In this document: positions 1-38,621 of the stretch, piece after piece
Position numbering within the stretch: position 1 is the first letter of the stretch
Layout of the letters: the number at the start of each line of letters is the position of its first letter
Assembly: GCF_910592395.1 (NCBI RefSeq)
Contig: NC_088309.1
Location: 22,705,923-22,769,922, forward strand
DNA: 64,000 nt
Reading direction: 5' to 3'
Source of the DNA: Lineus longissimus
Lineage: Eukaryota
The notes under the pieces: generated by a model
Told to the model about the DNA's origin: nothing
The model's database searches: none
Seen by the model: only the letters and a program-made list of their open reading frames with translations
Program-made: the position numbers and the translations under genes

Positions 1-314
1 GTCAAGGTACAAACATGTATATAGCTATAAAAACAGTGGCCCTTTAGTGTGATCGCTCAGTACGACAACCTCAAAGCTTCAATCCCGAGATTTCTGTCAC
101 AACGATGAAATATCTAGTGTGGGGATAATCAGAAAAACTGTCTGGCTTTGAAGCTGTATATCTGAGAGATGGGGATTATTTGGGCACATCTAGGCTCGAA
201 ACCATTCAGAGGTTTGTCATCTTCGCGAAAACCTTAGGGGTCGCACATCTGTGTTGGTCGAATGACTTCAAAGATTTTTAAAATATTCAATTTCCTTTAT
301 TTGTAAGAGTGTAC

Positions 315-506
315 CTCTGACACAAACTGGCTTCGTTTGTCTCCAGGTTCCATCATCACAGTTGAGTTTATCTCCTTTGATGTTTCGAATGAAGCCCAGA
401 ACGCACGACATCTTGACGCTCTGACCTGAACTGATGAAGTTCAGGTTTGTGTCGATCATAGTGTGATTGTCTTCCATTCGGCTGACCCGACAGCTACCTT
501 TGTTTT
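315..506 (-). CDS. Sushi/CCP-domain protein, exon (phase 1-1). The gene continues 3' beyond the window start.
   Basis: ORF 268..522(-) encodes ...GSCRVSRMEDNHTMIDTNLNFISSGQSVKMSCVLGFIRNIKGDKLNCDDGTWRQTKPVCVR. Acceptor ttacag| and donor G|gtacac. Confidence 0.65.
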
Positions 507-3143
507 CTGTAATTGGTATCACTTTTTGGTTGAAATGCCAAGAGTTTGGTTAAAATGCATTTAAGAAGGATTTCACGAACTCAAATTAAGGAGGATGGAA
601 AGGCGTTTTCACAACTAATGAACCATGCAGAACTATGAATCACGAATACTGTTGAACTATACCAATACCGTCCACTGCTCATCAACAGATAGGTATTAAA
701 CAAGGAGGTGTATCGGAGAAGCGGTGGCATGGTTTATTAGTGTAAGTATAGTGAAAGGTCGTAAAACGACTGAAAGCGAGTGAAAGGAGGGGGAGCTGTT
801 TGGAGAAGGAGGTATCAAAGGTTATATGAAAGATCAGCAAAGAAAGAAGTTATATCTATATCATGATACTATAAGGCGGCTCGATAAAGTGCCATTTGGG
901 GGTAGGGTTTCGTCTCGGAATTTTGCACGTTTGCAGGTGATATGTTATCCTGATGCAACGTCATGTTTATTTTCGGAAATTTACTTCAGCGGAGCAGTAA
1001 TGAGGGATTTCTAATCGGACACTGTCAATTCTCCTTACCACTCACAGAAGCCAAGTCATTGCTGTTTAGTTATGCAGGGGCTTAATCAATTACCTGCACT
1101 CCCTGTGGGGTGACTAACATTACCGGTTTAACAGCTGACTGTAGGGGGATGATTGGAACAGCCTGTACCTGTTGACCGCCTGAACTAAGGTTAATGTTAT
1201 TTTCAATCCACGATTGCAGGTCACCTGATCTTCAAAATTTCGCGGAGAAAGAAATTGTAAACAAACGTATGTGTGCAGTTCAAATGTAAACAAAAATGTA
1301 TTTTTGGTACTTTTGGTTGCTGGACTTGGGTTTTCCCGCAGTAAGGAGCTGGGGTTAAATTAGTGGTCTATTGTTTATAGCCCTTGATTATGAAGGGATT
1401 TTGAAGAGGCACTCTGAACTTGGCATGGCCTTATCAAGGAGCTGCTCACGGTGCTGAACTTCGAGCTTGCCTGTCGACTAAGTGCCTTGCCCGAGATCAT
1501 GCTACATGTAGGAGGAGCACGCATTTTAAAGTTATAGTACATGTAGTGATAGTGCAATTGGTTCGAGCCATTTGGAAGCCGACATGTGAAGGCCTGTCTG
1601 GGTTCTCCTTCTTCTCCATATAAAAAGGGGCACATTGCTGACTAAGGAACGAGGCATATTGACATTGCCTCATCATCTCTATGGACCAATTGATATACTT
1701 TTTATGCACGCATACAGCACGCCACAGCGAGGTCCGAGTCTGTGGACAAATGGTTGGTTTAATTTGTCTCTTCGATATTGCTCCTTTTATATTGCATTAT
1801 AATTTCATTGCAATTCAATCTATTTAAGGTATAGCCCATTTGAACCTGCCTGCGCCACGGGTACAATGCTATTATATAATAGTGCGATTTGTTCTGTCAC
1901 TGAGGTGAGTGAAATGCGAAAGATTAGTGGAAATTAAAGGCGGTGTATAAGATGAGTAAAACCATGGAAGCACCTATTGAGAAGGAGGTCACTTGTTCGT
2001 GTGGCGTGTGGAAAAGGAAACCGTTTGTATTTGAAGTAAGTAGGCTGAAAGAAGAAAAGGTGTAAGGGCAAGGGATGACACAGTTTTTATGCAGGATGAG
2101 CAAGAAGTGGAGAATCGAAGTGTAATATGTGACAGTGAATATGATATTCACGTTTCATCTCGCAAGTCCGCGAATAGAAACCAAGGACACGGTAAGTCTA
2201 GGCCAATAAGGGTCAACAGAATATACTTTACCTGGTTCACAATGGGGAAATTTAGCAGACAACGTTCCGTCCTCTCCGCACTGGATGTCCCGGTTGCCCA
2301 ACAGCCGGAAGCCATCGTGACAGATGACGGTGATATTGTCACCATATTGAATAGTGCTTGGAGCCAGGCTGCCATTGACAAGGACCTGTCCGTCGGGAAT
2401 GACAGAAACTACCTTGCAGCGGGCTAAAATATAGCATAATAGTTGTCATCAATGGTTTTGACAGTGTTTTCGAGAACTTCAATCTTTACTTCATCCTGGC
2501 TCTGTTGCGCTGAACAGGTAGCCTACAGTATCGGCCAGTCACATGGCAAAAGCATTCACTTTTCTTTTCATTGATGTATTGTTTCACGACTTTATATTAT
2601 GCGATTCCTTCACGTGGTGACCCATAAAATAGCCAAAATGCTAGTCATGTTTGCCTCGCAGCATCTCCTTGCAAACATGCTATTGATTTGTAAACATACC
2701 TATGAGACATTTCGAGACTTTCGGTAACCAGTCGCCGCTGACACCACATTTGATCACGTTTGTTGTCGTATCTACCAAATAACCTTTGTTGCAGACGATC
2801 TTTACAGTATCGAGAGACGCCAGTTTGAGTCCGGGGCGAAGGAGGGAGGATCGGCCATTTTCGATTGTTGGAATTGTGCAGAACGCTGAAGCGGCATTAG
2901 CTTATTAATATTGTCATGCAAAACGAAATCATTGTCATGAGGGAATGTTTGATTTCTCCTTATATATAAAAGAATCGTATAATAGCACTGCATGGAAGCT
3001 GCAAGAGAGAAGATTGAATCGTGAATGAATAAAAAATTTTCGTTCAAGTATTGTATACTGCAAGCGGCCAACAAAACAACATACATGTAGTTCGCAATTT
3101 CATCCAGTTAACTTGGAAAACAAGTTCGAGTTATTCTCCCTAC

Positions 3144-3338
3144 CTGTCCCGTTGAGGCACTTGGGGAAATCCTCATCGAATTCCTGTTTTTCACCGCATG
3201 TCAATCTATCGGCGCCAATGAGATGGAAGCCCTCGTCACAACTGGCGGCGAGTGTGACATTGAAATTAACTTCAGACGGCGCGACGGTATTACCCATCTT
3301 TATGGTGCCGTTTGGTAACGTCTGGACGGTGCAGCGAA
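3144..3338 (-). CDS. Sushi/CCP-domain protein, exon (phase 1-1). Encodes RCTVQTLPNGTIKMGNTVAPSEVNFNVTLAASCDEGFHLIGADRLTCGEKQEFDEDFPKCLNGT.
   Basis: CCP consensus. Acceptor tatttcag| and donor G|gtaggg. Confidence 0.7.
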
Positions 3339-4056
3339 CTGAAATACAGATCGTCAGAAATTGACAGAAAATTATAGAATGAAGTTATGATTTAGTCAAG
3401 ATAATACTTATAGGCATATTAGAAAAGAACCAACCGCAAACTCTCTTTTTAGATATACGCTCACCCAATTAAGACGCTTGGGCAAAACAGACTGCTTGTC
3501 TCTATCATATTCACATGGTGTACCAAAAATATATACAAGGCTCATCCAATAAAATAGGTCTTTATCAGTGTTAACACCGCTCCTATAGAAAGTCGCGTGC
3601 AAGGCGAATCAAATGCATGTGCAATATGCTATAAATTCCTCGGAGTGCCGTATCCCTCTGGGGGTGCGCTTATTCGTATATGTACATGTATGCGTATTAT
3701 TACGTGACTAACAATATGATAATCCGGCTTCGCATCCAAGAAAGCTCTGGATGGACTTCGGATTGTAGGTTAATGATGAGGAAGTAATACAATCTGGGGC
3801 AGAACCTTTCGTCTCTCGGGTATGGCTCATGCTGGACTTCCTCATCCACGAGATCTGTGTCACCAGATAACGTTATGAACAGGACGCGACGCGCAGCGCA
3901 TTGAACAAACAATAACGATGATATATATTCTCAGAAATAAAGTTTACTCATTGGCCTTGATACATAATACATCTTCGATAGAAGGGAGAATCATGCCTAC
4001 CTATAACAAGAAACGAACTGCATAAACCATTAGAAGGGCAAGATTTGACGACCTAC

Positions 4057-4335
4057 CCTTTTCACAAAACGGTATGGCAGACAAAGTTACGTTTTCGTAA
4101 CACCTTACAATCGGTGATCCGATGAGTTTGTAACCTGGGCTACAACGGACCGTCATATTGAGTCCACGGTGAAGTTTAGGAGGTCCGGTTGGAGCGGTAC
4201 CACCGTAGTCGGTTTGACCACCATCGCCACCATAGTCACCATAGTCGGACCCGCCGGCGCTGTCGGTCATTGCGGGACTGCTAGTAGTAGGGATTTCGTA
4301 GCCGCCATTCTCAATCTCGGGGAGGAAACATGGCG
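4057..4335 (-). CDS. Sushi/CCP-domain protein, exon with an N-terminal G/D/Y-rich stretch. Encodes PCFLPEIENGGYEIPTTSSPAMTDSAGGSDYGDYGGDGGQTDYGGTAPTGPPKLHRGLNMTVRCSPGYKLIGSPIVRCYENVTLSAIPFCEK.
   Basis: ORF 4001..4270(-) extended upstream to the acceptor ttttcag|. Donor G|gtaggt. CCP Cys pattern. Confidence 0.65.
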
Positions 4336-4600
4336 CTGAAAAGTGGGCATCAGATTACTAAAAGTGTGATGATTATAAGATCCCCCAGGTGACAAATGAG
4401 GGAACTCGAGGTGCCAGTACCTGTTCGAATTACTATACCCCGGTAATTTATTTCTGTTAACAAATAGATATATCGCGTTGATAACCGCATTCAAGTGACT
4501 TCAACTTCAAGACAGGACTATAAGACTTAGCTGTGGTAGAACAGGCGACAAAATGAATATACTGTACGATCATAATCGAACTTACAGGCCTCTTTAGCTA

Positions 4601-4640
4601 TAAATCATCATCATTATCATCATCATCATTCAGGTTTATG
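4601..4640. repeat. (ATC/ATT)n microsatellite.
   Basis: aatcatcatcattatcatcatcatcatt. Confidence 0.7.
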
Positions 4641-4779
4641 ACTCTTTTCCGGTCTTTCACGAATAAGTCGTCATTGCACAATCAGTGAACAACAGAGTAT
4701 TACGTATCACTATAAGAACCGACGGACGACGAAATCTACCCCCACACCGATTTGTCATCGCAGAGATCCTCAAACTTAC

Positions 4780-5007
4780 AGAATGGATCAATGGTCTTTT
4801 GCTTGCATACAGGGGATGGATGGTTCCAGGTGCCATTTTCCAAACATGTCAGGAGCTCTTCTCCCTCTCTGTCCATCAATATGTCACAGCCAATGGTGAT
4901 GGTCTTATTAACATCGACTGGTGTCCCCTGGGTGATGTCGTCATGAAGAAGCTTGATCCGGCCATTGATTATCTGTGGGACGTAGCACTTGCTGACTGTC
5001 CCAACAC
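4780..5007 (-). CDS. Sushi/CCP-domain protein, exon (phase 1-1). Encodes GVGTVSKCYVPQIINGRIKLLHDDITQGTPVDVNKTITIGCDILMDREGEELLTCLENGTWNHPSPVCKQKTIDPF.
   Basis: CCP consensus in ORF 4736..5026(-). Acceptor ttttttcaag| and perfect donor T|gtaagt. An alternative acceptor 12 nt downstream is possible. Confidence 0.6.
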
Positions 5008-5270
5008 CTTGAAAAAAAGAGGACATTTATCACACTGGGTCATCTCTTTCTCCATACTCGTTCTTCTCTTTTAACAGATCTAACGTAGCTAACATTCATT
5101 CTATGCCACCTGGACCCCTACATCCGCCATGCCACCTCCTTCTCCATACCTGTTACCCTCCTTTTACTTTATACAAATCTGACATGCAAACCGTGTCGCC
5201 CCTATGTCCTCCTATGTTTACCAATCATGCAAGTAATCCTTGAACTTGCACGTCATGTAAACGCACTAAC

Positions 5271-5591
5271 CTGAGTCTGCTAGACAGAACGGGACATTAG
5301 AAAGCCTTCCGTCAAGCTCACAGTTAACATGCTTTGAGCCAACAATCTCATAACCTCTGTCAGTGTCACACTTGACTTCGATGGAACCGCCGAGCGCCAG
5401 TTCCCGTATGTCAGACGCCTGACTTTTTGACTGGGTTTGGGTTGTGGGGAGACTGTCCCCCGAATCACCGTAATCGCCACCACCGTAATCGCCACCACCG
5501 TAATCGCCACCACCGTAATCGCCACCGTAATCGCCACCAGTCTCGGCAATGTAATAGGCGCCATTGGGAATGATAGGCAATTTGCATGCGG
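5271..5591 (-). CDS. Sushi/CCP-domain protein, exon with an embedded (GGDY)n low-complexity insert. Encodes ACKLPIIPNGAYYIAETGGDYGGDYGGGDYGGGDYGGGDYGDSGDS...IEVKCDTDRGYEIVGSKHVNCELDGRLSNVPFC.
   Basis: The ORF 5266..5580(-) frame has a four-Cys CCP pattern with a 15-nt repeat (caccgtaatcgccac x5) encoding GGDY units between Cys1 and Cys2. Acceptor tttcag| and donor G|gttagt. Confidence 0.65.
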
Positions 5592-6485
5592 CTGAAAGCA
5601 GAAAGTTCGTGTAAGCATGCAGACGAGTTTGTCTTCACAGCCAAAGCTAAAGTCATTTCCATAGGAAACTAGAAGCAAGTTTGTTGCCACGTTTTCACTT
5701 TAATAATTGAAAACTCTTGTTCCCTGAAAGTACAATTCGAGAAATTGATGCAATGCCAAGTCACCCACAAACAATGATGACGCTGCAAAGACTTGGTTAG
5801 TTATGAATAATCGCGAGGATTAGCAGAATTTCGACTCCCACTCCGACTAAAACTCCGAGAGCGAATAGTAGCCACCTATGGATACTCGTGAATTAAATTA
5901 TTTGATGGACGCTAGCCACTGATGACACACTGTCATAATGCGAGGAAGGATTTGGCGTCTATATCGAATGCGCGCATAAACCGCAAATACATGTATCAAA
6001 GTCGCATTCCTATTCGTGGTGATTTCTTACGAATAGGAATACGACTCCAATATTCACGATTTAAGAGCAAAATAGATTAAAGGCGCTGATTCTTTTTCCC
6101 ACGTGTGATGGTTTTCCAGGAGTGGAAAACATCCATCAAATCATTTAGTAAATCGCTGTTGTCCATTAGTAGCTCTTATTCGCTCTCGGATTTTCAGACG
6201 GAGTGGAAGTCGGAATGGTGCTAATCCTCGCTATCCGCGTGTGAGCTGCATGTGTTGCACTGAGTTGCAATGAATGCCGGTCAATTAAATTAACGTGTGA
6301 CTGGAATCAAGAACTTCGCACACTTCGTGATTTAACGTTCTGATATGATTTCCACCGGAATTGCATATCTCCATAACAACAAAGTTAAATGCCTGTGGAA
6401 ATCCTTTGTCCAAAAAAAGGAAATTCGCGACGGAAAATCCTAAGTGTGCGAGGACCTTTTAAAACATTGTCTTCTGTCAACTTAC

Positions 6486-6710
6486 TTGGTGGTGCAACCG
6501 TGAGAAAACTACTCCTACATTCAGGGATGGCGTGACTCCATGATTCATTGTTGAGACAACGGAGAAACTTGTCACCCTCTCGCTTATAGCCAGGACTACA
6601 CACCACGGATATTTCCTTCCCAGGGGATAACTCATCGCCTGCGTTGACAGTGCTGTGGAGGTACTTAATCCTACTATGGGGGATGTCAGGAACCTTGCAC
6701 TTTTGGTTAC
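6486..6710 (-). CDS. Sushi/CCP-domain protein, exon (phase 1-1). Encodes NQKCKVPDIPHSRIKY...VVCSPGYKREGDKFLRCLNNESWSHAIPEC.
   Basis: CCP consensus. Acceptor tttccag| and perfect donor A|gtaagt. Confidence 0.7.
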
Positions 6711-7139
6711 CTGGAAATTAGACGTATAGGCTGCCTCAGAGGGGATGTAGTACGTCCAACTTCCCAGAGCACGCCTTAAACCTTTCCGTTAAATGTTTAT
6801 AGACAGAAGTCGACATGCTGTCTCCAGTATTTTCTTCCGCTTTCATCACAGAAGAGAAAACTGGAAGCAGCGTGCCGATATATGTTTAGCAGATACTACG
6901 GCCGGAGCTTTTATTGTATCGATACACCAATCACCTCAGCTTGGACCTTATTTTCGTCCTATGTTGCGATCAAAATGTTCGACTAACCAGGGCTAACGTA
7001 ATGTGGCCTAAAAACGTGATTGGATGTTTTTTGCTTCAAATCACCTAAATGTCTCACTAAGAATATGCTACTATCCTTCACGTCTGTTATGTAAGGCACG
7101 TACAGCTGTCTATAGAGTAGGCCTAAACGTGTAGATGAG

Positions 7140-7178
7140 AAAGACGACGACGACGACGACGTTGATGATGATGAAGTG
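7140..7178. repeat. (GAC)n-(GAT)n microsatellite in an intron of the sushi-domain gene.
   Basis: gacgacgacgacgacgacgttgatgatgatgaag. Confidence 0.8.
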
Positions 7179-7213
7179 GGGGTGAAATAGAGTTGGTTCT
7201 TGTCTTCCCTTAC

Positions 7214-7420
7214 CTATCATAACATCAGCAGCGACACAAAACGGTATTCTACCCTTCCACTTTCCATCGACCTGACACATGAGGACGACATCCCCATCCA
7301 AGCTGAATCCAGTGTTGCAGGAGACATCCACAAATGTCGCAGATGAGATAGGCTTGCCTGAATGCAAGACAGTTTCGTCTCTTGTGACTTTACCGTTTGC
7401 TATCAGTGGTGTTGAGCAGT
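7214..7420 (-). CDS. Sushi/CCP-domain protein, exon (phase 1-1). Encodes DCSTPLIANGKV...VSCNTGFSLDGDVVLMCQVDGKWKGRIPFC.
   Basis: CCP consensus C..C..W..C. Acceptor cccctaaag| and donor G|gtaagg. Phase 1 is consistent with the flanking exons. Confidence 0.7.
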
Positions 7421-8483
7421 CTTTAGGGGAGGCTGTTGTGAGGCTATCACCTAGATGGTCAAGTAAATGAGGCCATTGAGGAACTTTATTACCGGTAGGC
7501 GGCCCAATACACCATACATTTCAAGCCAATGTCAAAACCAGACAGGTTTATTTACATCGAAGATTTTATAAGCTATGTTGTGTGTTGCAATCATTTCGGA
7601 TCACCCTGTATGTCGTACTTCCATGCATTACGGTTTTCGAGGAAGGAATAGCGAGGGAGAGGTGGGTAAAAAGGCTTTGAAGAATGTTCATATGCATCCA
7701 TATAGCATGCAGGCACATTATCGGATATATATACATGTATATAAAAAATATATATGTCGTGGTTTAGGGTTAGTAATTGGCATTTTCATAGAACCGACGT
7801 ATGATGATAAATTGCATGCAGTTTGATCATCTCTTGCTCCACCAACTCCCTCCAAAGTAACTATTGCCATTCGTCACCATTTAAAGGAATGGACTCTCTT
7901 TGTCTCAGCGAACTTGTCTGCCTCTTAGTCCACCATAATGGTCGCCATATCCTTTTTAGAGTGTTTAGAATTATAATAATGCTGACTATGGATATGTTGT
8001 ATTTATTAAGCACCTTGATTATTGTGGTTCTTGCGATTATTGCGATTATTTATTAGGAGGTGAGGTCTCAGCAATGACTTTGCCCAGTATTGCGTTTTTG
8101 GAGTCTCGTTTACCGGTACAGCGATGAGTTTTGAGTTCTAATGTTCTACGATGATAAATGAAAGGATGCAGCAATTAACATTCTACGGGACTGGACGAAT
8201 GTATCAGTTCATAGTCGATTATTCCGTACCGATCCAAGGTCCGTATAAAATCGCGGAATTCATTATTTATGTCTTATAGTAATTCTGTATGATGTCCTCG
8301 TAACCTCTTTCATACTTTAATTGATCTCGGTTTAGATTTTATCATCATATATCATATTAATCACACACTTAATAGTAATATCATTGCTATCCAACATGTC
8401 TGAGAATAAGAGGAACGTCTTGGATGACCCTGCATGATCTTGTAAAGCCTTCGGACGATCATTCATTTCAAGTTATTTCATAC

Positions 8484-8711
8484 CTTTTAGTGAGCAAGAT
8501 GAGAGAGGCGGATTCCAGCTACCGGTGTCCTGACAAATGCTGTCTCCGTCTCCACCACCGGACAGCTCGAAACCATAATCACACAAGATAGTTATAACCT
8601 CTCCTGGGTTCGACTTATCGGGGTCCGAGGCAAGGTAGTCCTCATAGTCGTAGTCTGGGCCATAGACTAACTGTCCATTAAGAACAGTTTTCGGTAGATT
8701 GCATGGCTGTC
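8484..8711 (-). CDS. Sushi/CCP-domain protein, exon (phase 1-1). Encodes ...CNLPKTVLNGQLVYGPDYDYEDYLASDPDKSNPGEVITILCDYGFELSGGGDGDSICQDTGSWNPPLSSC.
   Basis: Four-Cys plus Trp CCP pattern in the six-frame ORF 8473..8793(-). Acceptor ...attgcag| and donor |gtatga read from the sequence. The phase joins in frame to the next exon. Confidence 0.7.
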
Positions 8712-11700
8712 CTGCAATGGCAAAGAGTTGGCGGTGACAGAAGCAAGCCAGGCTCGCGTGTCTCTTTGGGGAAAATGCGTACACCCAAAGCAAGGCTTAA
8801 TTAGATCTATAATGCAAGGTCTTACTAATAACCCCGGCCGGAGATTCTGCACAATAGCGAATTCAGTGAAGACGTCCAAGAGCGTTCTTCACCCACGCCC
8901 TCCCCAAGCCGCGACCATAACGGAATGCTGCTGCTTTGATTAAATATCGCTCATATGTGCACCGTTTCGCTCACCTTGAGTTAAACACAGGGCCGTTCAA
9001 CTTATAGGAAGGCATAATTATAGGTATGCAGGCCATGCAGGGTACTAAAAGTTGTCTCTCCTATCTGATCTATTCAAGCTAGTACCAGGAAATATTTATC
9101 ACTGAATCAAAAACGAATTCGACCCCTAACTGTGCATATCACTCACTCCTGCCTATTCTCCTGAAATATATAACATCGGAGAAAAACAAGGAAGCAAATT
9201 AGGGCATAATGAGTCATATGGGCGAAGATATGCATCCAGTTTCCGCCCCTCCTTTCTATCAGCGTTAATCGGCAGAAAAGGCGGCCAATTATTACCAAGC
9301 ATGCAGAATAATTATGAAATATGATATTACAATAATACCACTTGACATGATAATTGAAGGACCGTATACTACTCAAATAGTGTATTCAAGGATACTTGGT
9401 AATACAAATTCAATGACGTACACAATATTATCTACATTCCCGCGCAACCAGTGTGATCAATGCCACACCCACGCATGACTATAGGTGGGTGCTGGAGCGT
9501 CAAATCGAAGGTCTTTATGTGCGTGGTTATGCACAGTTAAGGGTTCTTAGTTGTGTTAGATTCAGTGATACTTATATTCCTCATACAAGCGAGAATAGTT
9601 TCGATGTATTGTAAAGAGCGGAGAAGACACCTATCGGCGACGTCGTGTAACTTAATCTGACCTAACCGGCTCCTGCATGTCTCCCTTTAAGAAAGGCACT
9701 TGCATTCTCAATTCAAGATAAATTTCTGCTATCTTATAGCTTATATGACTACATCACTAAGTGTCATCCTCATGATGTCTGTTTTTCGTCGAAATTTCAT
9801 TTCAGGCCACGAAATGCACAAAACACACTTCATGTCTGCGCGACACATGTAAATAGTGAAAAAAGTGTCATCAGAATATTTAGGCTAATATCCGTTATTT
9901 AGTAATTCATTGATTATACAGAATTATCAAAAATACATCTCCTACAAATGTACTAGCCTACACAAGCAAACATTCGGTGACGAAAATCATACATTACCAG
10001 AGAACAATACAATCATAGTAGACCTAAATGTATGCATGTGGCATAGGCATGCATCAAGCATCTTGACCACCAAGGATTTTGCATCAACATGTAATCATTA
10101 TTCAAGATATAAATTGTACATGTATATTCTAGAATTAAAGGGAGTATGAGACCATGAGAGTCAGGATAAGACGAGCATGAAACTGTAAATGACGATTAAA
10201 GAATGTGGAAGCAGTATTGCAGCACCTTTTCCATCCTGAACCTCATGGTCTCACGCTCCCTTTAAAAATAAGGGTGTATCTCTTGACAGTATGCAAAAAC
10301 CTTGGTGTTCAAGGCGCATTGTTCCAAATTCTCACAAAATTAATTGGCTTCTACAATCGTAATCATAGTGCCTGTTTCTTGCTTTTTGTCTCAAACAACA
10401 CCCCTCAAAGATTTCAACTGATTTAGCACTTTGATTAGGCCCTAAATCCCCTATAAGATGTGCGAGTGCCAATATCGCGCCCTGCACGGCATATAAATCA
10501 TAACATAGAGGATTTCGCACTAGAGGCAGTATGCCCCATATTTCCTTTTGTTGAAGTTCAAAGAAAATTAGCAATTTTAACGTTCGCCTTAATTTTATCA
10601 TTGAAGCAGTGAAGTGAAGTGATAAAAAATGATTACATTGTTCCAAGAAAACTTCGGCTGGCCTTCCAAACAAAGTCAGTTTTGGCCTTCCTTTGCCTTT
10701 CGGATTATGTCACTCTGACTCCCTGATGGAACCGCCTGGGGATATGTGATTATACTCCATTTGGGATGAAATGCAAGCCTTTTTAAAAAGTTTGACTAGC
10801 CATTGGAAGTCAAGCCGAATAATGCTGAAGATACTTTAATTTCAAGTTGCGCATTGCGCCATCTTGCAGATTGTTTGTCTAAAAAAACCCAGCAATTTTA
10901 GGACATAAGGATCAAATAATGGGTCATTTAATGATTTTAAAATCAAGTCATACTTGATTCTAGCCTTTTGCGGCAATGGCTCGGGTAATGACATGCAGGA
11001 GATGTTGGTTGTAGCAACCTTTTGGGACACATGCTGCGGTGGACGAGCAAATCATAATGATCCTACCTAAGACAATTGGAACAAAAAGTAATAGAATTCT
11101 GATTAAAGAAAGGACACGCTGGCAATATCCGCTGCTAACCATCTTGATCTTCACACGCATGTACCAAGCCGAATACCAAAAGTGAATCAGTTTTGATCAA
11201 TTGCCCGGTATCTTGCTTCCGTATTCCGCAATTTTAGGCCTTTTGCGCGATATATATAACGGACGTCGCCCAATATTCTCGTCATCAACAATGACCTAGT
11301 GAAATAATGGCCTATTGTTACTGCACAAGAGATCATCATGCGCAGGAGGTCATGCCTCAACCAATCAAACATGCGCTCTTCAAGTAGGCCGTTGAATAAT
11401 ATACTCCGGAAGTCACATTCTGTTCACATCATGCTGAGAATTGATAAAATGAACTATTCTGACAAAAGCGATCATATTCGGACAAAGCCGAAAAAAGATA
11501 CACAGATATTTCAAGAACATCCTGATTATTAATGGACGACTGCACATTCTAAGCAGAGACCAGATATGAAACAAATTTAAAAACCATTCGCGAACGGACA
11601 AAGTCACAATCTTCTTTTTCTACGCTTTCACATTGTTCGTTTTTGGGACTAGGAAAGTTGCTGTGTAACGTAGCTCTGTCCTGATTCTGTTCCTCCTAGC

Positions 11701-19272: not shown

Positions 19273-22200
19273 CTATGCAGGTTTTGAAGATATCTCAAAA
19301 TATTTGGCAAAGTCTGGATTCCTTTTGATGTCCTCTAGTTGAACAACTGGCGTCATATCCAACTTTGAGTCAACTGGAAGTGCGCTTCTCTTCTGCACAC
19401 AACTGCGTGAAGCTTTCCAATCTTCTATCATTGTTCGCATGGTCTTAAGAGCCTTCAAGTTATCCTTTTGATTCTTAATCACTGTTGAATTACCTCCGTG
19501 AATCTTGTTGCCATGTCTCTTCACTTCATAACTTTCGTGCGAGGTAAAGATGCACTTGCTGCATTTGTACGGTCTCAGCTTAGTGTGATTAAAGATGAGA
19601 TGCCTCTTTAGAGAAGTCAGATTATAAACAAAGCTTTGGCAAAGATGGCATTGGAGTTGTTCAGATGGTCGTGCAGGGGCCTTCTTTTGGCGAAGTCTTG
19701 TAGTTTTAACTGGTACATTACTCGAAGAAGTGGTCATGGACTCCGTAACAACTTTCACCTCAACAACTGGATCTGATGTCTTTGTTGTGCTGGAGACAGG
19801 AACTACACTTTTAGTAACAGGAACCTTTGGGCAAACAAGAAACTTTGGGGAAATAAGCATCTTTGAAGCAGAAACCACCACTTTACTAGATGGACTAGCC
19901 ACAGTTTTTGAAGGTGATACTGGACTTGTCTCCAGAGAAACAGCAGGTTTTCTGGCTTTTAGTCCCTTCAGCTTTTGCTTGACCTTCTTTGATGATGATT
20001 TCGGCTCTTGCTTTATCTTCTTTGATAACGGTTCATCGTCAGAATCAGGTTGAGTATCTGCATCACCCCAAGCAGGTGGAACATCGAAATCATCTAGATC
20101 ATCATCTTCTTCCTTCCGTAGTTTACTTTGATCAGTTGCAGCTCCAGTAAAGCAAAGGTCTACATCAACCATCAATTGTTTTGAGACATGCACCTCCTTA
20201 TGGTGCTTCCTTGCCTCCACTAAGCTCGAGAATTTCTCTTTACAGTGCATACATATGCATGCATATGCCGGAGTACTAGGGAAGGCTTCAGGTACTGGGT
20301 CACCTGCATTCTCTGTATGAAACATTTCATCCAGCAGCAAGACCTCTCTTGCCAAGTCTTCCATCTGAGTGACGAGCATGATGTACGCCTTTGTTTCAAC
20401 AACATCATCATACTCTTCCTTTGACCCATGTATGAAGCGAACATGGCGATAGATGTGTTTGTCATTACTGTAGTCACAGTGAGCGCAGCGGTATTGCTCA
20501 ATATTCAGATGTTCCTGCACATGCTTCTTGAAAGCATCAATACTTCTAGCTGTATAGGAACACTTACTACATTTGTAGATACACGACCTGCCCGAGCTAT
20601 TTATACAAATTGCTCTGTAATGTTCTGGGACAGAAGCTGTGCTACCTTTGAGTAGCTCTCCTCTACGGTTTTGCTTGACGTAAGATTGTGTCAAGTAGCG
20701 CTCCAGTGATTTCTTAACGGATTTTTCCTTCACCTCAGTCACAAAGACCACGTCAGTTCTCCCTCGGAGTTCAGGGTGTTTGCTATTCACATGATCTTGC
20801 ACGGACACACGAAAACCCGACTCAAATGAACAAAATGTACAGGAGTACGGCTTAATTTTTGTATGGCTCACTAAAAAGTGCTGCCTTGCCTCTTTCCTTG
20901 TGGCACACCAATATCTGCAATGGATACAAATATATTCTTTGTGTACCAGGCTAGACTTAGATTTTTCACCAGATGTGGAATGTGTTACCTCAGGTGCTGG
21001 AGCAGCAGGAGGCTTTTTTCCCTTCATTTTCTTACTCGAAGCTAGGAGTAGAGCTACATCGGTCCCCTCATTGACTGCCACCTCAACAATCATATCACCT
21101 GCAGCCTTAGCCTGTTCATCAAAAATGTCATCCAACACATTCATTGCTTTCCTTAGTGTTGTGTCTGGACCGTGGCTAGTCAGATGTTTTCCTAAAAACA
21201 TTGTCGACAGAAATCTCGCCCCACAAAGACTGCATTCGTAAGGTTTGTATGCCAAGTGCGTACAGACCACATGGTTCTTGCTATTGCTGTAGCTGGTGCT
21301 ATACATATCGCACTGCTGACAGCGAAACACTTTCTTGTAGTTAGGTTGTTTAGAGGGATACCATCTTTGGTTGGAATTTGGTGTGGATGTGGACAGATGC
21401 GGTTCTGGTGTTGCAGAATATGGAGTGTCTTGACAAGCATATGAGGTAAAGGGCGATTCGGTTCGTGTAACCGGTGCAGTGGGATCAAATTTAGGAATGG
21501 GTTTCAGGGAATACTCCGGCGCTATCCTTCCACATGTCTTTAGAGTCGCTTCAATCCACTTCAGCTGTACTTCCGCCACTGCTTCATCCTTTATAATATC
21601 ATTAGAAAGATGGACTTCCATGGCATGGGAACTTGCCACCAGTTCTTGTTTAAAATTTTGCCCACATTTGCCACATTTATATGGAAATACGCTCGAGTGA
21701 AATGCCAGGTGTATGGCAAGTCCAGCTTTTCCACACGGTCCAAAGTTACAGAGTTTACAAAGTTCCAACTCTCTGCAGACCTTGGATTCCAAAAGTGCAT
21801 CAGGGAGTTGAATGGAGTTCTCCAAAACTAAATTCTGAGCATCCTTTTTCTGTTCCACCATCGATTCGTAGTCAGTTATGATGCCAGCTATCAGCTTCTT
21901 ATCATTTCCATGGGTTTTCTTTATGTGCGATACACAACCATGCTTATACGTATAGGAGTTATCACATCTAGCAAATGGACACTTGTGCGGCTTGAATGAC
22001 AGATGAAGGAACATGTGCTGGAGGAGAGCACTTGGCGTTCTACATGCAAAATGACAAATTTGACACAAGTGTGGCAAATCCATATCTGAAGGCAAAGCCA
22101 TCCTTTCTGCATAACCATTAAAGAGCAAAATATCCTTTCGCAGCAATTCAATGTCAGCCATTTGGAGTTTCTTCAAGTAAGTGTTAATTCGGACACTGAC

Positions 22201-23661
22201 CTTTGGGTTTTCGGCACACTCTTTTGATTCCTTGATATGATTATTGGCCAACAACTGAAGCTTGAACTGGCTTGAACATACGGAGCACTGGTACGGCGTA
22301 TAGCACAGATGGCTTGCAATATGTGGAGTTAAATGATAGACATACGGCTGAGGACCTGACCCACATACCATGCACCACCATTGAGAGGATGTCACATTGT
22401 CATTTTGCAGTCCGTCTTTCAGGAAATCCTTGCATTTTCTCTCTGTTACTTCAAGCATCATTTTGCGACTGCTGCTGTTTAAAGCAAAAGACTGCGGCTC
22501 TGCCTTGTGGCGATTCTTTGAGTGCAATTCAAGACCTCGCTTGTTGAATGCCTCCTTCCCACACAATAAACACATATATGCCATACAGCTGTAAGGGTTG
22601 TGATACTTTGAAACATGGATTTTGAACTTGTCCTCAGAGTTGGATTTATATGAACATTTATGACAAGTGTACACATACAAGCCAGATTGTACAGTAATTA
22701 GTTTAAGGGTAACATCTTTACTCGTTTGATCTTCTGTTTTTTTAACTTCCTTTGGCCTTTCTACAACCTTTTGGACTGGAGTGGTGTCATCTGCTTTGCC
22801 TATGGCGTGATCTTGAACTAAATGGTCTTCAATGTGCATGTATGTCTGCGAGATGAAAGCACAGCAAGGGCAGTGATAAATGTGCATACTCTTATGAATG
22901 CGCCACATGTGCTGTTCAAGCTCCATGGGACACATTGTCTCAAAAGTACAATTCCTACAACTATACCGACCGACAATATGTTTTTGTTGACAATGTGAGC
23001 ACTGAACCTTAGAAATATTTACAGCCAATGAACCAGGAGATGGATTGGCAGAACTTTTCTTTTCAGGCAAATGAAAAGTAGCCTGATGGGCCGCAACCTC
23101 TTTTAATTCATTGTGGGTGAAAGGACACCTCGAACACCTGTAAACACGCTTGTTATTAGTACCATGCAGTAAACTCACTACATTACCCGAGCCTGCAGGG
23201 GACATCTGCTGTATGACAACAGGACTCGGTACAACACTTTTTGCAGCGATAGCTAAAGATTTTTGAAAATTGTCTCTGGAGACATCAACAGAACTTTTTA
23301 GCTTTTTTTTCTCGACCCATGAAGTGACCTCTATATTGACTGCATCAAGTTTCTGCTCTTTCAAAGCAGCTTCAGCGCACATATAACCGGTCATTTGCTC
23401 AAGGTATGAGGCACATGCACTTGCCACAGAACTATCCGACTGATTTCTCAGGATTGTTTGCACTAGATCAGAATCATCAATGTTCACAGGAACACAGGGT
23501 TTTGTTGTCAAGTCCTCGAAATCTGGATCTAGCATGACCTCAAGGCCATCAATCATCATGGTGTTGCCAATAAGCGGAATATTCTGCTCAGTCATTGCCT
23601 CCTCAAGGCAAAAATAATCTGGGTGCGACACCATCCCAGTCATCATGTCAAGAGCTGCCAT
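19273..23661 (-). CDS. Large multi-C2H2 zinc-finger protein. The 1,462-codon CDS is uninterrupted and lies in a single exon.
   Basis: A 4.4 kb ORF with more than 20 CxxC...HxxxH C2H2 units (for example YRCAHCDYSNDKHIYRHVRFIHG and YKCSKCSYTARSIDAFKKHVQEHL). The start is placed at MAALDMM (gataagaaacagaaacATGG context), 18 codons inside the ORF. A ttccag| acceptor at ~23687 upstream of the ATG implies a spliced 5'UTR. Confidence 0.8.
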   Translation of the reverse strand: MAALDMMTGMVSHPDYFCLEEAMTEQNIPLIGNTMMIDGLEVMLDPDFEDLTTKPCVPVNIDDSDLVQTILRNQSDSSVASACASYLEQMTGYMCAEAALKEQKLDAVNIEVTSWVEKKKLKSSVDVSRDNFQKSLAIAAKSVVPSPVVIQQMSPAGSGNVVSLLHGTNNKRVYRCSRCPFTHNELKEVAAHQATFHLPEKKSSANPSPGSLAVNISKVQCSHCQQKHIVGRYSCRNCTFETMCPMELEQHMWRIHKSMHIYHCPCCAFISQTYMHIEDHLVQDHAIGKADDTTPVQKVVERPKEVKKTEDQTSKDVTLKLITVQSGLYVYTCHKCSYKSNSEDKFKIHVSKYHNPYSCMAYMCLLCGKEAFNKRGLELHSKNRHKAEPQSFALNSSSRKMMLEVTERKCKDFLKDGLQNDNVTSSQWWCMVCGSGPQPYVYHLTPHIASHLCYTPYQCSVCSSQFKLQLLANNHIKESKECAENPKVSVRINTYLKKLQMADIELLRKDILLFNGYAERMALPSDMDLPHLCQICHFACRTPSALLQHMFLHLSFKPHKCPFARCDNSYTYKHGCVSHIKKTHGNDKKLIAGIITDYESMVEQKKDAQNLVLENSIQLPDALLESKVCRELELCKLCNFGPCGKAGLAIHLAFHSSVFPYKCGKCGQNFKQELVASSHAMEVHLSNDIIKDEAVAEVQLKWIEATLKTCGRIAPEYSLKPIPKFDPTAPVTRTESPFTSYACQDTPYSATPEPHLSTSTPNSNQRWYPSKQPNYKKVFRCQQCDMYSTSYSNSKNHVVCTHLAYKPYECSLCGARFLSTMFLGKHLTSHGPDTTLRKAMNVLDDIFDEQAKAAGDMIVEVAVNEGTDVALLLASSKKMKGKKPPAAPAPEVTHSTSGEKSKSSLVHKEYICIHCRYWCATRKEARQHFLVSHTKIKPYSCTFCSFESGFRVSVQDHVNSKHPELRGRTDVVFVTEVKEKSVKKSLERYLTQSYVKQNRRGELLKGSTASVPEHYRAICINSSGRSCIYKCSKCSYTARSIDAFKKHVQEHLNIEQYRCAHCDYSNDKHIYRHVRFIHGSKEEYDDVVETKAYIMLVTQMEDLAREVLLLDEMFHTENAGDPVPEAFPSTPAYACICMHCKEKFSSLVEARKHHKEVHVSKQLMVDVDLCFTGAATDQSKLRKEEDDDLDDFDVPPAWGDADTQPDSDDEPLSKKIKQEPKSSSKKVKQKLKGLKARKPAVSLETSPVSPSKTVASPSSKVVVSASKMLISPKFLVCPKVPVTKSVVPVSSTTKTSDPVVEVKVVTESMTTSSSNVPVKTTRLRQKKAPARPSEQLQCHLCQSFVYNLTSLKRHLIFNHTKLRPYKCSKCIFTSHESYEVKRHGNKIHGGNSTVIKNQKDNLKALKTMRTMIEDWKASRSCVQKRSALPVDSKLDMTPVVQLEDIKRNPDFAKYFEISSKPA

Positions 23662-26214
23662 GTTTCTGTTTCTTATCTCCCACAACCTGGAACATAAGAG
23701 TACACATGTAATCAAAGTAATCTACTTCACGTAAGTCTACCTTCAAACATTACTTTATCAAGAGGGTCAACATGTAAACCAAGAGTTAAAAGATCTATTT
23801 GGATGCCAAAATACAATGAAAATACAATATTATGGTTAAAAAAACAGCGGTCCGGCATGAAGGCGGCAACAGGTCATCGGTCATGGTTCAGAGCAATTTG
23901 AACAGAAAGATTTCTACAGGCAATACTCATGCATGCACATGCTATAATCAGGAACTTGCACTGCAGTAAGCCCCATTACTGAAGGACTTAGCTATACGAC
24001 TTACCGAAAGACAATCACCAAGATAGGGTTTTTGTTATCCGCCCTACAGTTATGCCCATTGCTTCAACTCAACTGATTACCGATTCGTGACTCTGAAATG
24101 TAAAATAAGGCGGCTTTCAACAGCCTCCTCTTTGGCCTTTGAACACTCAAAAGTGAGCATCTTTGTTGTTAACTGTAGTAGCCCAACACTCAGACAACAG
24201 GCAAGTACCAACATCAAACATGTACAACTACAACCATGAAAATTAGGCCCAAAAAAGGTCATCAATTGACGAAATAAGTGCCATCTTACCATCATTTGGA
24301 ACGAGTTTACAATCCCCGATCACACACCAAAAAAAGGTCATCGGTTGACTAACGAAGCACCACTGTTCAATGGATTTATAGTTGAATTGAATGCGATCAA
24401 ACTACGTCATTTCCGATCGGGGATTGTACATTTTAACCCATCATTTCCCCTCAAAATACATTGTTCGGTAATAATATAAAGATTTGCATTTGGGGGTTCT
24501 GCCTGGTCTGCTCGTTAGTGCTTGAGCAGTTTGTTGACACACCCTGTATGTTCACACTCAGTCCCAGAGAGCAGCACATATTCATTGGCATTTTACGCCA
24601 GTTCAGAAGGGTACAGTGATGTCAAGTTATGTTACTTCTATGGACTAATACATAAACAGCAATAAAAATACCTTTCACTCACGATTGGACAACGATAACG
24701 ACGAAAAATACGTGTTATAGGATATAAAATTATTATCTTGGCTAATTTTTTTCATTTTCAAAAGGAACGATTCGACCGATTCCACCTTTGCCGTTATCCA
24801 TCCTCAGCATTTCCAGTCTGTACTGCTGTAAAACGGTCAGTAGCCGTTGTGACTGCCAATGACTAATAATTTATGATCAATCCTTGCGGGTTGTGACGGC
24901 TCCTTTTTTTCCTTTGAGTTTGCAGCACGTTTTTTCTTATATCGTATGTTCATGCATAGTTCTGACTCTGTAGCCAAATAGGGCATGGCGCCAGCAGCCC
25001 ATCCTGAGCAAGGGCGTAGCTGAGCCTTGGTTTAGGGGGGGAGGCTCTCTAATAGGGGGAGGAGGGGGGAAAAGGCTGTCCCCTTTGGAATGTTTGGTCC
25101 GTGGTGGGAGACAGAGGATCAGGCGTAAAATCTATTCTGCTACTTATGCTATTGCTAGTGAAACACGGAGGCCCATCCTGAACATCTGAGGAATCGCTTC
25201 TCCGGCCCTGCACAATCCCGGACACAAATACTTTGATATAATGGGCGCTTTCTTATAAGCTGAGGGGAAATGTCCCCGGCCTATAGACTCTTATGCAAGT
25301 CCCTTTGGTCATCCAGATCGCTTATTCCTCTTGTATATACCGCCGTGGGCAACAAGACGAAGTCGTTCCCCTGCCTCCGGAGTGTGCAGGGCCCGATATC
25401 ATCACCGGATATGAGCGAACGTCCAAACCCTGTCAAATTAATGGACTAGGGTTCTGGCCTGTCATGAAAGACATTGTCACAACCGACTATTCGTCCCGCT
25501 TTTGAATTTGAATTTGAATTTAAAAATATTTTTTAATTTCTAAAAGGTGGGGACCAAAAGTTACCAGGGAGAGAATTTTGATCTAGGGTCAAGTAATACC
25601 CGGGCAACTATTTCGCTCACCAAATTATAATGAAAATTACGTCGATCATCCTGTCATCACGCGATCGTCTGACCACATGGAAAATTCACCACACCAGCAC
25701 ACCAACTTTCAATTCATATTCCAAACTTCTCCGTTAAATTCTTTGATTTTACCACTTTTTCGCGACTAAAGACAAATTTTAGATGGTAAGTTCATAGATT
25801 AGGTATCGCAGCTCATTCATATTCCGATATTTTTGCGTTTCTTGTCTTTTCGGGGCAATGAAATTGAAAGGAGTTTTGTGCGGTTGGCCAAAATTTTGAT
25901 GATGGCGGCGTTCCCGCTACACCTGCGCGATGAGTTTTTTCATCAAAAAAACATCCGATTCTGTGTTACATGATACTCACCAAAGTGCCGGAGCCAGGTA
26001 TTCTTGTTCTGTGTGTAATCTACATTTTGTCAACTGAATTACGTGGAGATTTTTACCATTTTTGATGGCGAAAATCATGTTGAAACTGACCAGTCCAGTA
26101 CGGCCTCTTCGGCCATGTTGCATGCACGTGTTTTCTGTGTGCATTAACAACATGCATTGACTGTGTGTTGATCGTGCACTTGATTGCGGGAACAGGGCCT
26201 AGTACATGTAGTAG

Positions 26215-26925
26215 TTATACCGGCAAATCAGACAACGGTAATTTAGACACAGTAAATTAGACAACGGTAATCTAGACAATGGTCATTTTAGACAATGGTA
26301 TTGGTAATCTAGACACAAGGATAGGTAAATAAGACAATTTGAAGAGGTTGTTCACCTCTTCAGATTAGGAAAGATCTTCATTTTGGGAGTTGGCATGATC
26401 TGCTTAGGCCTATCAGCGGAAATTTGATTAACTGACTAATTGACTGTATTGTTATTTCTCAGGTAATTAAAGCTGACACCTTCATGACAAATTTTGCTTG
26501 GTGCAATTAAACTGCAATTGTAGTCCCTATAATAAGGGCCTAGTATAATCGAATGAACGGTATATTGGCTGAGACAGTCGGATTCATCTTTGAAGTATTT
26601 TTTTCTTTTAAGTTTTATCGTCTTAAGTTTTAAGACTAGGCCTACTATGTCCCCTTAGTAATTGCCTACTCAAAAAATCCAGTGTCATTTTGTGACCAAC
26701 TTGATGTTGTTAATTACTGCCACACTTCCCCAATCTTTGATATTGGATTTGAATTGAAGAGGTGCACAACCTTGTCAGATTGTCTAATTTACTTATCCTT
26801 GTGTCTAGATTACCATTGTCTAAAATGACCATTGTCTGGATTACCATTGTCTAAAATGACCATTATCTAGATCACCATTGTCTAATTTACTTTGTCTGAA
26901 TTATCGGTGTTTTATGAAGTTGAAT
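26215..26925. mobile_element. Foldback-like inverted-repeat element. The ~150-bp terminal inverted repeats are built from tagacaa(y)ggt(a/c)at sub-repeats and flank a ~390-bp core.
   Basis: 26221-26290 (ggtaatttagacacagtaaattagacaacggtaatctagacaatggtcattttagacaatggt) is the reverse complement of 26810-26890. The sub-repeats are visible by eye. Confidence 0.6.
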
Positions 26926-36301: not shown

Positions 36302-36690
36302 CTGAAAGGACAAGTGGGGTAAAGTTCACTTTGACAGAGCCAAATGATTATTTAAAGTATGTAGCGACAAAATTGGCATTGAAAATGTCATGCCAGTATG
36401 GACTGCCTTTAATAACTCAATGTTGTTCCTCCTGTACGATGGTAAATCATAAGAATGAATGACACCAAAACTAAAGTGACTCCATAGGTCAGTTTGAGTT
36501 ACTCGAAGTCATCAATAGTGGTCTATTTATGCTTGTTCGAGGATTATATTTGATGCTCAGTCAAACACAGCTTAGATTAGAGAAAACTATTCTCTCCCCA
36601 ATGTAAGTATCTACCTTAAAGGCAGTTGTTGACTAGAGAATTGCGAGAGAAATCTATATCCTATAAGGAGTCAAAAAAAGTTGTACTAAC

Positions 36691-36852
36691 CTGTAGAGTC
36701 TCATACAAGAACTCCTTTTGGCAGTATCGACAGTTGGCTAATCGCTTATGACACTCATTCTTCGTGTGATTCCCGAGAAACCGTCTCTGGAGCTTAGCAC
36801 CACATTTATTTTCACACCAGACAACCTCATATTGGCAGTTCCCTTCGTGAGT
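36691..36852 (-). CDS. TRAF4: TRAF4 exon 5, TRAF zinc finger (THEGNCQYEVVWCENKCGAKLQRRFLGNHTKNECHKRLANCRYCQKEFLYETLQ).
   Basis: Matches human SHEGMCPQESVYCENKCGARMMRRLLAQHATSECPKRTQPCTYCTKEFVFDTIQ. Acceptor ttccag| and donor CAG|gttagt. Confidence 0.9.
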
Positions 36853-38621
36853 CTGGAACAGAGATTTTGGTTCGTGATTTTGACAGATTCAAATGTTATG
36901 ACACTAAATAAGGGTGGCGGTGGCTCGAAATAGGTCTCATCCAAGATATCTCATCGAAAATCATATTTTAAAAAAGGTGTTTTCATCTTGCCGTCCTAGT
37001 CGCCAACCAATCTTCATTCACAAAAGAAGAACTAGTACATGGAAGAATGAGAACTTCAAAAGTAAAATATTTGCAATTTTGTAAAATTCAAACTGTCCTC
37101 AATTGAATGACACTTGAACATGTAATGTCTGAGAAAAACCAACATAGTTAGAGATGTTTTCTCAGTCATAAACCATCTAACTGGGAAAATTTTTCTATCA
37201 CATCAAATCTAAATGCTGGGAGAGTTTATGTTGCAATGTGCGTACTGGTACTTGTACATATACTTGTACTTGTACATATGTTTGCATGAGAACTTAAGGG
37301 TTAGCTTTGCAGTGCTTTTATACTATACCCATCATTAGGGATCATCTCACTTAGAAATGTCCCAATAAGGAAATATAAAACAGACAATTGTGCATTTCAA
37401 GCATGTCAGTCATGCTAAATGTCCAAGATAGTAAACATCGCATGACCAAACAAATCGACTATCTGCACGATCTTCAAAATAATACCTACTCAAAACTTGA
37501 AAATCGTGGCGAAGCTCTCCATGAAAACAATATTCACATGTAAATATCGAAAATGCAATGATAACCCATCACGATTCCCGAGAATCAGAATTCGATAAAA
37601 ATGATTTTTAACCTAGTACATCAAAACATGAGCACCTTTATCTAAGAAGTACACATTGTCTCATGTCTAGTGTATTTTTACTGCAGGCTTTTCTTTACCA
37701 AGGTTGTTTCTCCACAGAAAATGCACTTTTTCGCCAGATGTCAAATCATTCAATTGATCCTTCCAACAACAAAGAATTCCAAAGAGCAAGCATGACAAGA
37801 ACCAAACATGGGGTTGACTGAGGTTGATTGGCCCTTGACCAAGTATCACAAATGTTCTTGCTTACTGTTGCATTCTGAAGGGTCCTTCAGGGGTTCACAA
37901 TGTGTTCAATGTACACATTATTCCCACGTTTCGTTTGAGCCAAGCAAAAAGACTATACCCAATAGCACCCCGGACATTTTCTGAAATTTGTTCATGGAGA
38001 TTTGTTTTTCATGTTTCATTTATTCCATAGCAAGGAACCACAAAAATAAGATGAGGGATGACATTCTCTGCGGTTTTTAACCTCTGTCAACATTCTCATA
38101 GATAAGTTTACCACAGGGATGTTGTTTGTATCATTTACCAAAACAGAATAGAGATAATGTGCATGCAGGTACTTGGCAAAACAGGGAGCTGGTTAAATAT
38201 GGAGTAGTAAAAGACAGGATACCATCAACCACAATGACATACAAATATCCAAGGTTGGTTATTCATTCAAAGCATCAAAGTCAGTTTGTGATAGAACAAA
38301 GACTGCAGAAGCAAGAGCTACTTTAAAAGCATACTTGCCAACTATCCTTATGATCACTGCCGCCAAGGAAAGTACAAAAAAGCAAGAGGTATGACTGAAC
38401 ACACCTTTTGGTACATCAAATTCACCAGAGCAGAGGGATAGTTACACCACATTCGAAAGGACAGAAGCAGAAATGAAAGAGCGAAATGATAGATGACAGA
38501 ACAACATACTGAGCAAAAGAATGAAAAGTGGAAAATGTAAAATGTGAGAACTAAAGGGCAAAGTGATTGTGAGGTCATAACTACATACAGGATATAGAAA
38601 AGTATTTTCTATTTTACTTAC

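Follow-up and report, generated by a model that had tools for sequence, protein, structure and literature searches.

The membrane-bound regulators and receptors of the complement system, such as CR1, CR2, CD46 and CD55, consist of a signal peptide, an uninterrupted array of CCP (sushi) modules, a single transmembrane helix and a short tail, and their CCP modules are encoded on phase-1 exons. Proteins with clustered sulfotyrosines, including PSGL-1, GPIb-alpha, chemokine receptors, the complement C4 alpha chain and fibromodulin, carry 2-5 Tyr residues beside Asp or Glu in a flexible segment that is free of basic residues and enters the secretory pathway. Here we describe a gene of the nemertean Lineus longissimus that shares the architecture of the first group and carries, in three of its CCP modules, acidic Tyr-rich inserts that resemble the sulfated segments of the second group, so that the sequence of these loops makes them plausible sulfation substrates. 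The analyzed stretch, hereinafter the window, encompasses 64,000 nucleotides (assembly GCF_910592395.1, contig NC_088309.1, positions 22,705,923 to 22,769,922 of the forward strand) with a GC content of approximately 0.41, and holds the 5' three-quarters of this single protein-coding gene.

Gene structure and domain architecture

The gene is located on the minus strand and is already annotated in RefSeq. The translation of our 11-exon model exactly matches residues 1-792 of XP_064619683 (1091 amino acids), and the database search identified three RefSeq proteins identical to the model, namely XP_064619683 and its isoforms XP_064619684 (1015 amino acids) and XP_064619685 (984 amino acids). This identity to one protein argues against the possibility, raised in a first-pass annotation of the same DNA, that the exons belong to separate genes. 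The product is a type-I membrane glycoprotein with a signal peptide, 12 CCP modules (10 of them encoded in the window), one transmembrane helix and a cytoplasmic tail.

Candidate exons were delineated by reading the minus strand of positions 1-9600, scanning all frames for four-Cys modules and anchoring each module on splice sites. Ten CCP exons, each encoding a single four-Cys module, were found between positions 8711 and 315: CCP1 (8484-8711, 228 nucleotides), CCP2 (7214-7450, 237), CCP3 (6486-6710, 225), CCP4 (5271-5591, 321), CCP5 (4780-5007, 228), CCP6 (4057-4335, 279), CCP7 (3144-3338, 195), CCP8 (2700-2885, 186), CCP9 (2232-2423, 192) and CCP10 (315-506, 192), after which the gene runs on past the start of the window. 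All of these exons are bordered by AG upstream and GT downstream, comprise a multiple of 3 nucleotides and are open in phase 1-1; the probability that ten lengths are all divisible by 3 by chance is (1/3)^10, about 2e-5 (approximately 1 in 59,000). All 10 modules therefore reside on exons of their own with phase-1 introns on both sides, the hallmark of exon-shuffled class 1-1 module genes. The first-pass annotation, in which one module per symmetric phase 1-1 exon had been correctly recognized, counted eight such exons instead of ten; the borders that it gave for the exons of CCP1, CCP4 and CCP6 are exact. Its central observation is correct, and the architecture is confirmed as textbook CCP exon shuffling.

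A signal peptide upstream of 8711 and additional CCP exons below 315 had been anticipated, and both exist. The first coding exon (11067-11160, minus strand), located by tblastn with XP_064619683, starts with an ATG at 11160, has a GT donor at 11066-11065 and likewise ends in phase 1. This exon encodes MRVKIKMVSSGYCQRVLSLIRILLLFVPIVLG, with the hydrophobic segment at residues 13-35 and the signal peptide given by MRVKIKMVSSGYCQRVLSLIRILLLFVPIVL(G), and is directly followed by CCP1 in the product. Beyond the window start, the RefSeq protein continues for 299 residues that comprise CCP11, CCP12, the transmembrane helix (residues 946-970; mean Kyte-Doolittle hydropathy up to 3.0) and the cytoplasmic tail.

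The assignment of the modules to the CCP family is strongly supported at the sequence level. In the 760 amino acids encoded in the window, the Pfam Sushi family (PF00084) is detected in seven stretches with an E-value of 4.2e-62 and a score of 206.8 bits, against a cut-off of 20.7, and in the full 1091-residue protein it is detected in nine stretches (E=9.6e-68). The four Cys residues are invariant in 10 of the 10 modules in the window, two Gly residues are nearly so, and the Cys spacing is canonical apart from the three insert-bearing modules. The Trp residue that typifies the segment between Cys3 and Cys4 of these modules, which measure about 60 residues, is present in six of the 10, being absent from CCP4, CCP6, CCP7 and CCP9, a degree of variation that is known for the family. 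Structural support for the CCP beta-sandwich is moderate. AlphaFold models were built for the CCP4 and CCP1 exons, each from an alignment of the ten in-window modules. In the CCP4 model, the core reaches a predicted local distance difference test (pLDDT) score of 90-94, and residues 15-60 score 47-52 with no secondary structure. The CCP1 model has a mean pLDDT of 84.8, with a core of about 90 that falls to 58 over DYEDYLASDP. A Foldseek comparison of the CCP4 model with the PDB retrieved CCP modules of factor H, CR2, CD46 and beta2-GPI as the top matches (1.5 A over approximately 43 columns); the best E-value, 4.7e-3, is weak because only these 43 or so core residues align.

All three isoforms bear the RefSeq product name 'sushi, von Willebrand factor type A, EGF and pentraxin domain-containing protein 1-like' (SVEP1-like). 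Like SVEP1, the protein contains many CCP modules. However, SVEP1 is approximately 3500 amino acids long, and a Pfam scan of the full L. longissimus product at E<=0.01 detected no family other than Sushi, that is, no VWA, EGF, pentraxin or HYR domain. Orthology with SVEP1/polydom was accordingly rejected, and the name reflects the best match. A relationship to selectins was rejected as well, given that there is no Lectin_C or EGF match in the product and that CCP1 follows the signal peptide immediately.

The similarity to membrane-bound complement regulators is closer, and the gene might encode primarily a homolog of CR1, CR2 or CD46 that uses its ordinary CCP modules to bind a C3-like opsonin, with the inserts being incidental. 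The signal peptide, CCP array, transmembrane helix and short tail all match this group, and by sequence the closest solved structures are CR1 (E=2e-53), CR2 (E=9e-48) and factor H (E=1e-28). We nevertheless consider this role improbable. No CCP array shares more than about 30% identity with the protein, a generic level, and the matches align mostly to the plain modules CCP7-10; the tail gives no orthology signal; CCP arrays serve many roles outside complement, and C3b binding is not a property that can be read from sequence. The complement regulators and receptors lack acidic Tyr-rich inserts in the hypervariable loop, whereas three modules have them here.

Two additional features concern the two ends of the gene. 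A TATATATA motif at 11240-11260 (minus strand), approximately 90 nucleotides upstream of the ATG, is a plausible candidate for a core promoter element. At the other end, the cytoplasmic tail (residues 971-1091 of XP_064619683, about 120 residues) is Tyr-rich and includes YNTM (YxxM-like), YENEN (YxN-like), YMPPYM and ITYKPAY, a set of motifs that suggests phosphotyrosine signaling.

Acidic tyrosine-rich inserts in the hypervariable loops

The spacing between Cys1 and Cys2 is 39 residues in CCP1, 71 in CCP4 and 61 in CCP6, compared to 28-33 in the other nine modules. In the alignments, the extra residues of all three modules fall between the 'NG' strand and the strand that leads to Cys2, that is, in the hypervariable loop. 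The three acidic inserts of the Asp-Tyr/Gly type listed in the first-pass annotation are thus all present, and the models described above predict that those of CCP1 and CCP4 are flexible loops on confident CCP cores.

The CCP4 insert, of approximately 40 residues, includes an in-frame coding tandem repeat at 5470-5538 (minus strand) that consists of two copies of GGTGGCGATTAC and three copies of GGTGGTGGCGATTAC and encodes (GGDY)2(GGGDY)3. The two units of 12 nucleotides and the three units of 15 nucleotides are all perfect, including synonymous sites, and Tandem Repeats Finder (TRF) reports the array at 5466-5539 with a period of 15, 5.1 copies, 90% matches and 9% indels. It had been described as (GGDY)5 encoded by a perfect 15-nucleotide tandem; the three 15-nucleotide units are indeed perfect, but the other two units are shorter and the peptide differs accordingly, whereas the placement between Cys1 and Cys2 is borne out by the alignment. 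In composition, the CCP4 loop contains 17 Gly, 5 Tyr and 9 Asp or Glu among 52 residues.

The CCP6 insert, of approximately 30 residues, contains the degenerate Asp-Tyr/Gly sequence AGGSDYGDYGGDGGQTDYGGTAP (4190-4258, minus strand) with Ser/Thr/Pro-rich stretches on either side. Here, only a decayed 9-nucleotide periodicity remains (TRF, 4219-4246, period 9), and three Asp-Tyr pairs are kept. The segment SDYGDYGGDGGQTDYGG, originally placed ahead of this module, actually lies inside it, between Cys1 and Cys2. In CCP1, the acidic Tyr cluster VYGPDYDYEDYLASDPD (8617-8667, minus strand) includes DYDYEDY, a stretch located about 20 residues from the predicted mature N-terminus in which three Asp-Tyr pairs fall within six residues. 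This insert shows no repeat at the DNA level, contains no Gly and uses codons unlike those of the other inserts.

Comparison of the modules with one another reveals two pairs of mutual best paralogs, CCP3/CCP5 (score 129) and CCP4/CCP6 (score 127), against a background of 21-86. The CCP3-CCP4 and CCP5-CCP6 segments thus look like products of a two-module tandem duplication, and both members of the CCP4/CCP6 pair carry an Asp-Tyr insert.

The main competing account of these inserts is neutral low-complexity growth, in which slippage of GGTGGCGATTAC-type units expanded the one CCP loop that accommodates changes in length, with no specific modification or ligand involved; the gene would then be one more lineage-specific multi-CCP membrane protein. 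We regard this as a serious possibility, although with a probability clearly below even. The CCP4 array, being perfect and free of synonymous differences between units, must be young; the inserts of CCP1 and CCP4 are low-confidence loops in the AlphaFold models; long inserts in the same loop are tolerated by other CCP proteins; and there is an annotated isoform that lacks the GGDY exon altogether. However, slippage does not readily account for CCP1, where the same Asp-Tyr chemistry occurs in the absence of a DNA repeat or Gly, nor for CCP6, where three Asp-Tyr pairs persist despite decay of the repeat in an insert that is common to its paralog CCP4.

The distribution of Tyr residues also speaks against neutral growth. 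Asp precedes 12 of the 30 ectodomain Tyr, compared to an expectation of 7.4% (binomial p=7e-7, or p=4e-4 when the five repeat units are counted once), and this excess is concentrated in the loops, with 11 of 12 Tyr in Asp-Tyr pairs as opposed to 1 of 18 elsewhere in the ectodomain (Fisher p=2.5e-6). The same chemistry is reached by different DNA routes, with different codons and with a DNA repeat in CCP4 only, which points to selection, or failing that to a shared constraint, on the Asp-Tyr content of the three loops, although it does not amount to proof.

Candidate tyrosine sulfation of the loops

The published sulfation criteria, which we applied to each Tyr residue, call for acidic neighbors up to five positions away, above all at -1, in a turn-prone context that lacks basic residues and has neither Cys nor an N-glycan close by (PMC6272617). 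Each of the 11 Tyr in the inserts, which are set in sequence rich in Gly, Asp and Ser, is directly preceded by Asp; Lys, Arg and His are missing from the five positions on either side, and Cys and sequons from the seven positions on either side, in agreement with the acidic, base-free context proposed in the first-pass annotation. For 7 of the 11, there are at least three acidic residues within five positions. None of the ectodomain Tyr outside the inserts satisfies the full rule set. Sulfotyrosines on cell-surface proteins have been described to cluster as two or three within six residues, and the CCP1 trio near the mature N-terminus is in the arrangement given there (PMC9372746).

The topology of the protein is compatible with this modification. 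With an N-terminal signal sequence and a single transmembrane helix downstream of all loops, the product has the features of a secretory-pathway substrate, and the loops would be luminal or extracellular, where the tyrosylprotein sulfotransferase (TPST) acts. This enzyme has been reported in Drosophila and Caenorhabditis elegans (PMC6272617) and is therefore expected in a nemertean.

Two isoforms differ from the full-length protein exactly at insert-bearing modules: XP_064619684 corresponds to the model without exon 8484-8711 (CCP1), and XP_064619685 to the model without exon 5271-5591 (CCP4). The GGDY segment, for which an intronic status had been considered, is exonic in XP_064619683 and is skipped as a cassette in XP_064619685. 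Thus, both annotated cassette events hit Asp-Tyr modules, with a chance expectation of 3/12 x 2/11, about 0.045.

The explanation that we favor, with a likelihood that we place slightly short of even, is that TPST sulfates the loops, which thereby offer polyanionic docking sites made of sulfotyrosine on a rigid stalk, and that splicing and slippage adjust how many of these sites are present. Under this scenario, the flexible acidic loops would be sulfated by TPST in the Golgi, and the resulting sulfotyrosine clusters, possibly together with O-glycans on the neighboring Ser/Thr/Pro stretches, would form polyanionic docking sites that extend off the CCP stalk, in a role akin to that of the sulfated N-terminal segments of PSGL-1, GPIb-alpha and chemokine receptors. 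The number of docking sites on the receptor would in turn depend on which exons are skipped and on slippage of the repeat in frame. Ser/Thr/Pro stretches similarly adjoin the sulfotyrosines of PSGL-1.

Several considerations weigh against sulfation as the function of the loops. The sequence rules from which it is predicted are permissive and known to over-call. Just two acidic residues lie within five positions of Tyr292 and of Tyr297, both located in GGGDY units, and repeats of the Gly-rich GGDY/GGGDY type have not been described as a sulfation motif. The CCP4 array, perfect at the DNA level and hence young, could be a neutral slippage product, and no other part of a CCP module tolerates indels as well as the hypervariable loop. 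The isoforms are RefSeq computational models. Finally, a word-index search retrieved only the isoforms of the protein itself followed by generic CCP proteins at no more than 30% identity; no ortholog that would show conservation of the loops was found, which is in line with neutral growth.

The loops could alternatively exploit Tyr or Asp in another way, namely through oxidative Tyr cross-linking (dityrosine or 3,4-dihydroxyphenylalanine, DOPA), binding of calcium or mineral by the Asp-rich stretch, or extracellular phosphorylation of Tyr or Ser. Gly/Tyr-rich repeats are common in matrix and adhesive proteins of marine invertebrates, and in its composition the CCP4 loop fits such a role. Yet the loops are short, with 3-5 Tyr each, and acidic, whereas the known DOPA adhesives are Lys-rich; the CCP1 cluster contains no Gly; and the protein is membrane-anchored, with a signaling-type tail, rather than a secreted matrix component. 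Accordingly, we deem these alternatives quite unlikely. A secreted Gly/Tyr matrix or adhesive protein, as such, is ruled out by the transmembrane helix and tail.

Relatives of the gene and comparable inserts

An exhaustive phmmer search yielded 2772 matches, all of them generic CCP arrays that share approximately 30% identity with the protein and cover chiefly the plain modules CCP7-10. A BLAST comparison of the cytoplasmic tail with the 150 best matches produced no significant hit (best E=0.05). A windowed scan of 2497 CCP-like modules in the same 150 proteins showed that Cys1-Cys2 loops of at least 48 residues occur in about 20 modules (under 1%), several of which are HYR-like rather than CCP, and that none of these long loops is Asp-Tyr-rich and base-free; the only analog brought up by the insert scan is the arthropod one described below. 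The lack of such loops among the long ones that do exist is another point against generic, unconstrained growth.

Long insertions in the hypervariable loop of CCP modules are, nevertheless, not unprecedented, being present both in helminth effectors and in an arthropod SVEP1-like protein. The TGM, HpARI and HpBARI proteins of Heligmosomoides polygyrus are CCP-like proteins with large insertions, and in TGM-D3 the insert consists of 23 ordered residues in the hypervariable loop and is part of the ligand/receptor-binding surface (PMC9163516). Unlike the inserts described here, the TGM-D3 insert is ordered and neither low-complexity nor acidic, and the helminth proteins are secreted parasite effectors that are unrelated in sequence to the L. 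longissimus membrane protein.

More similar in composition are two arthropod SVEP1-like sequences identified in the course of the present analysis, P0004 from Armadillidium (residues 77-246) and P0064 (residues 2120-2336), in which the Cys1-Cys2 loop of one CCP contains a repeat of 168 and 215 residues, respectively. These repeats are acidic, aromatic and rich in Gly, Gln and Ser, as in GQASSDYENFGQSSNGFEFSQST..., GQxSSDY... and GFDFDYGGQT..., and we found no description of them in the literature searched. They occupy the same loop as the L. longissimus inserts but are far longer, Phe-rich as well as Tyr-rich, and include basic RRRR/RRKR sites. Moreover, the arthropod proteins contain an HRM domain, are thousands of residues long and differ in architecture from the gene studied here. 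The arthropod repeats are probably of independent origin.

With respect to sulfation itself, the candidate clusters predicted here would be internal loops of folded CCP modules rather than terminal tails, a location that is not among the four sulfotyrosine contexts of a 2022 review (PMC9372746). In the literature searched, nothing links sushi domains to internal sulfotyrosine loops, and there is no mention of GGDY strings or of such loops in Nemertea. The more specific proposal, that sulfotyrosine clusters occur as internal CCP loops whose number is regulated by skipping of CCP1 and CCP4 and by in-frame GGDY/GGGDY slippage, so that the protein would act as a tunable PSGL-1-like ligand in a complement-receptor-like stalk, should be treated as rather unlikely, albeit less so than the complement or cross-linking roles considered above.

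Other features of the window

Just upstream of the CCP gene, an uninterrupted open reading frame of 1482 amino acids (19276-23721, minus strand) shows weak Pfam matches to C2H2 zinc fingers, the zf-H2C2_2 match (1.3e-6) falling short of the curated cut-off. The reading frame probably represents a zinc-finger gene that either lacks introns or has a large exon, and its C-terminal 574 amino acids, used as the query of a word-index search, retrieved no close homolog. Farther upstream, three minus-strand exons of a TRAF-like gene (53308-53523, 38445-38807 and 36664-36888) comprise one RING-finger exon and two TRAF-type zinc-finger exons. When concatenated, these exons match zf-TRAF (E=1.3e-18) and zf-C3HC4 (6.8e-7), and a word-index search with them found no protein sharing words.

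Several tandem repeats are scattered over the window. The repeat at 60522-60857 (55 bp, 6.1 copies, 98% identical) gives rise to look-alike open reading frames ('VLCSWIVLPPFSKPSCNLSV...') in three minus-strand frames but is a satellite rather than a coding sequence. A 21-bp repeat with a 63-bp higher-order unit at 45992-46171 (8.4 copies, 77% matches) generates a spurious Cys/Gln-rich open reading frame on both strands. One repeat each is present at 31628-31887 (109 bp, 2.4 copies) and 26802-26885 (31 bp, 2.7 copies). Rfam and tRNA scans of positions 1-64000 detected no family at the gathering threshold and no tRNA gene.

Implications

The RefSeq name 'SVEP1-like' is shown not to be a real orthology call for this gene. 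If the loops are not sulfated, the gene is a well-behaved textbook case of CCP exon shuffling combined with low-complexity growth in the hypervariable loop. Conversely, if the loops are sulfated, the gene would provide a clean invertebrate case of sulfotyrosine clusters housed by a folded adhesion module instead of a terminal tail, with the copy number of the clusters set by alternative splicing and repeat slippage. Such a finding would add to the contexts known for this modification, which is difficult to detect and has received little study outside vertebrates and blood-feeding invertebrates.

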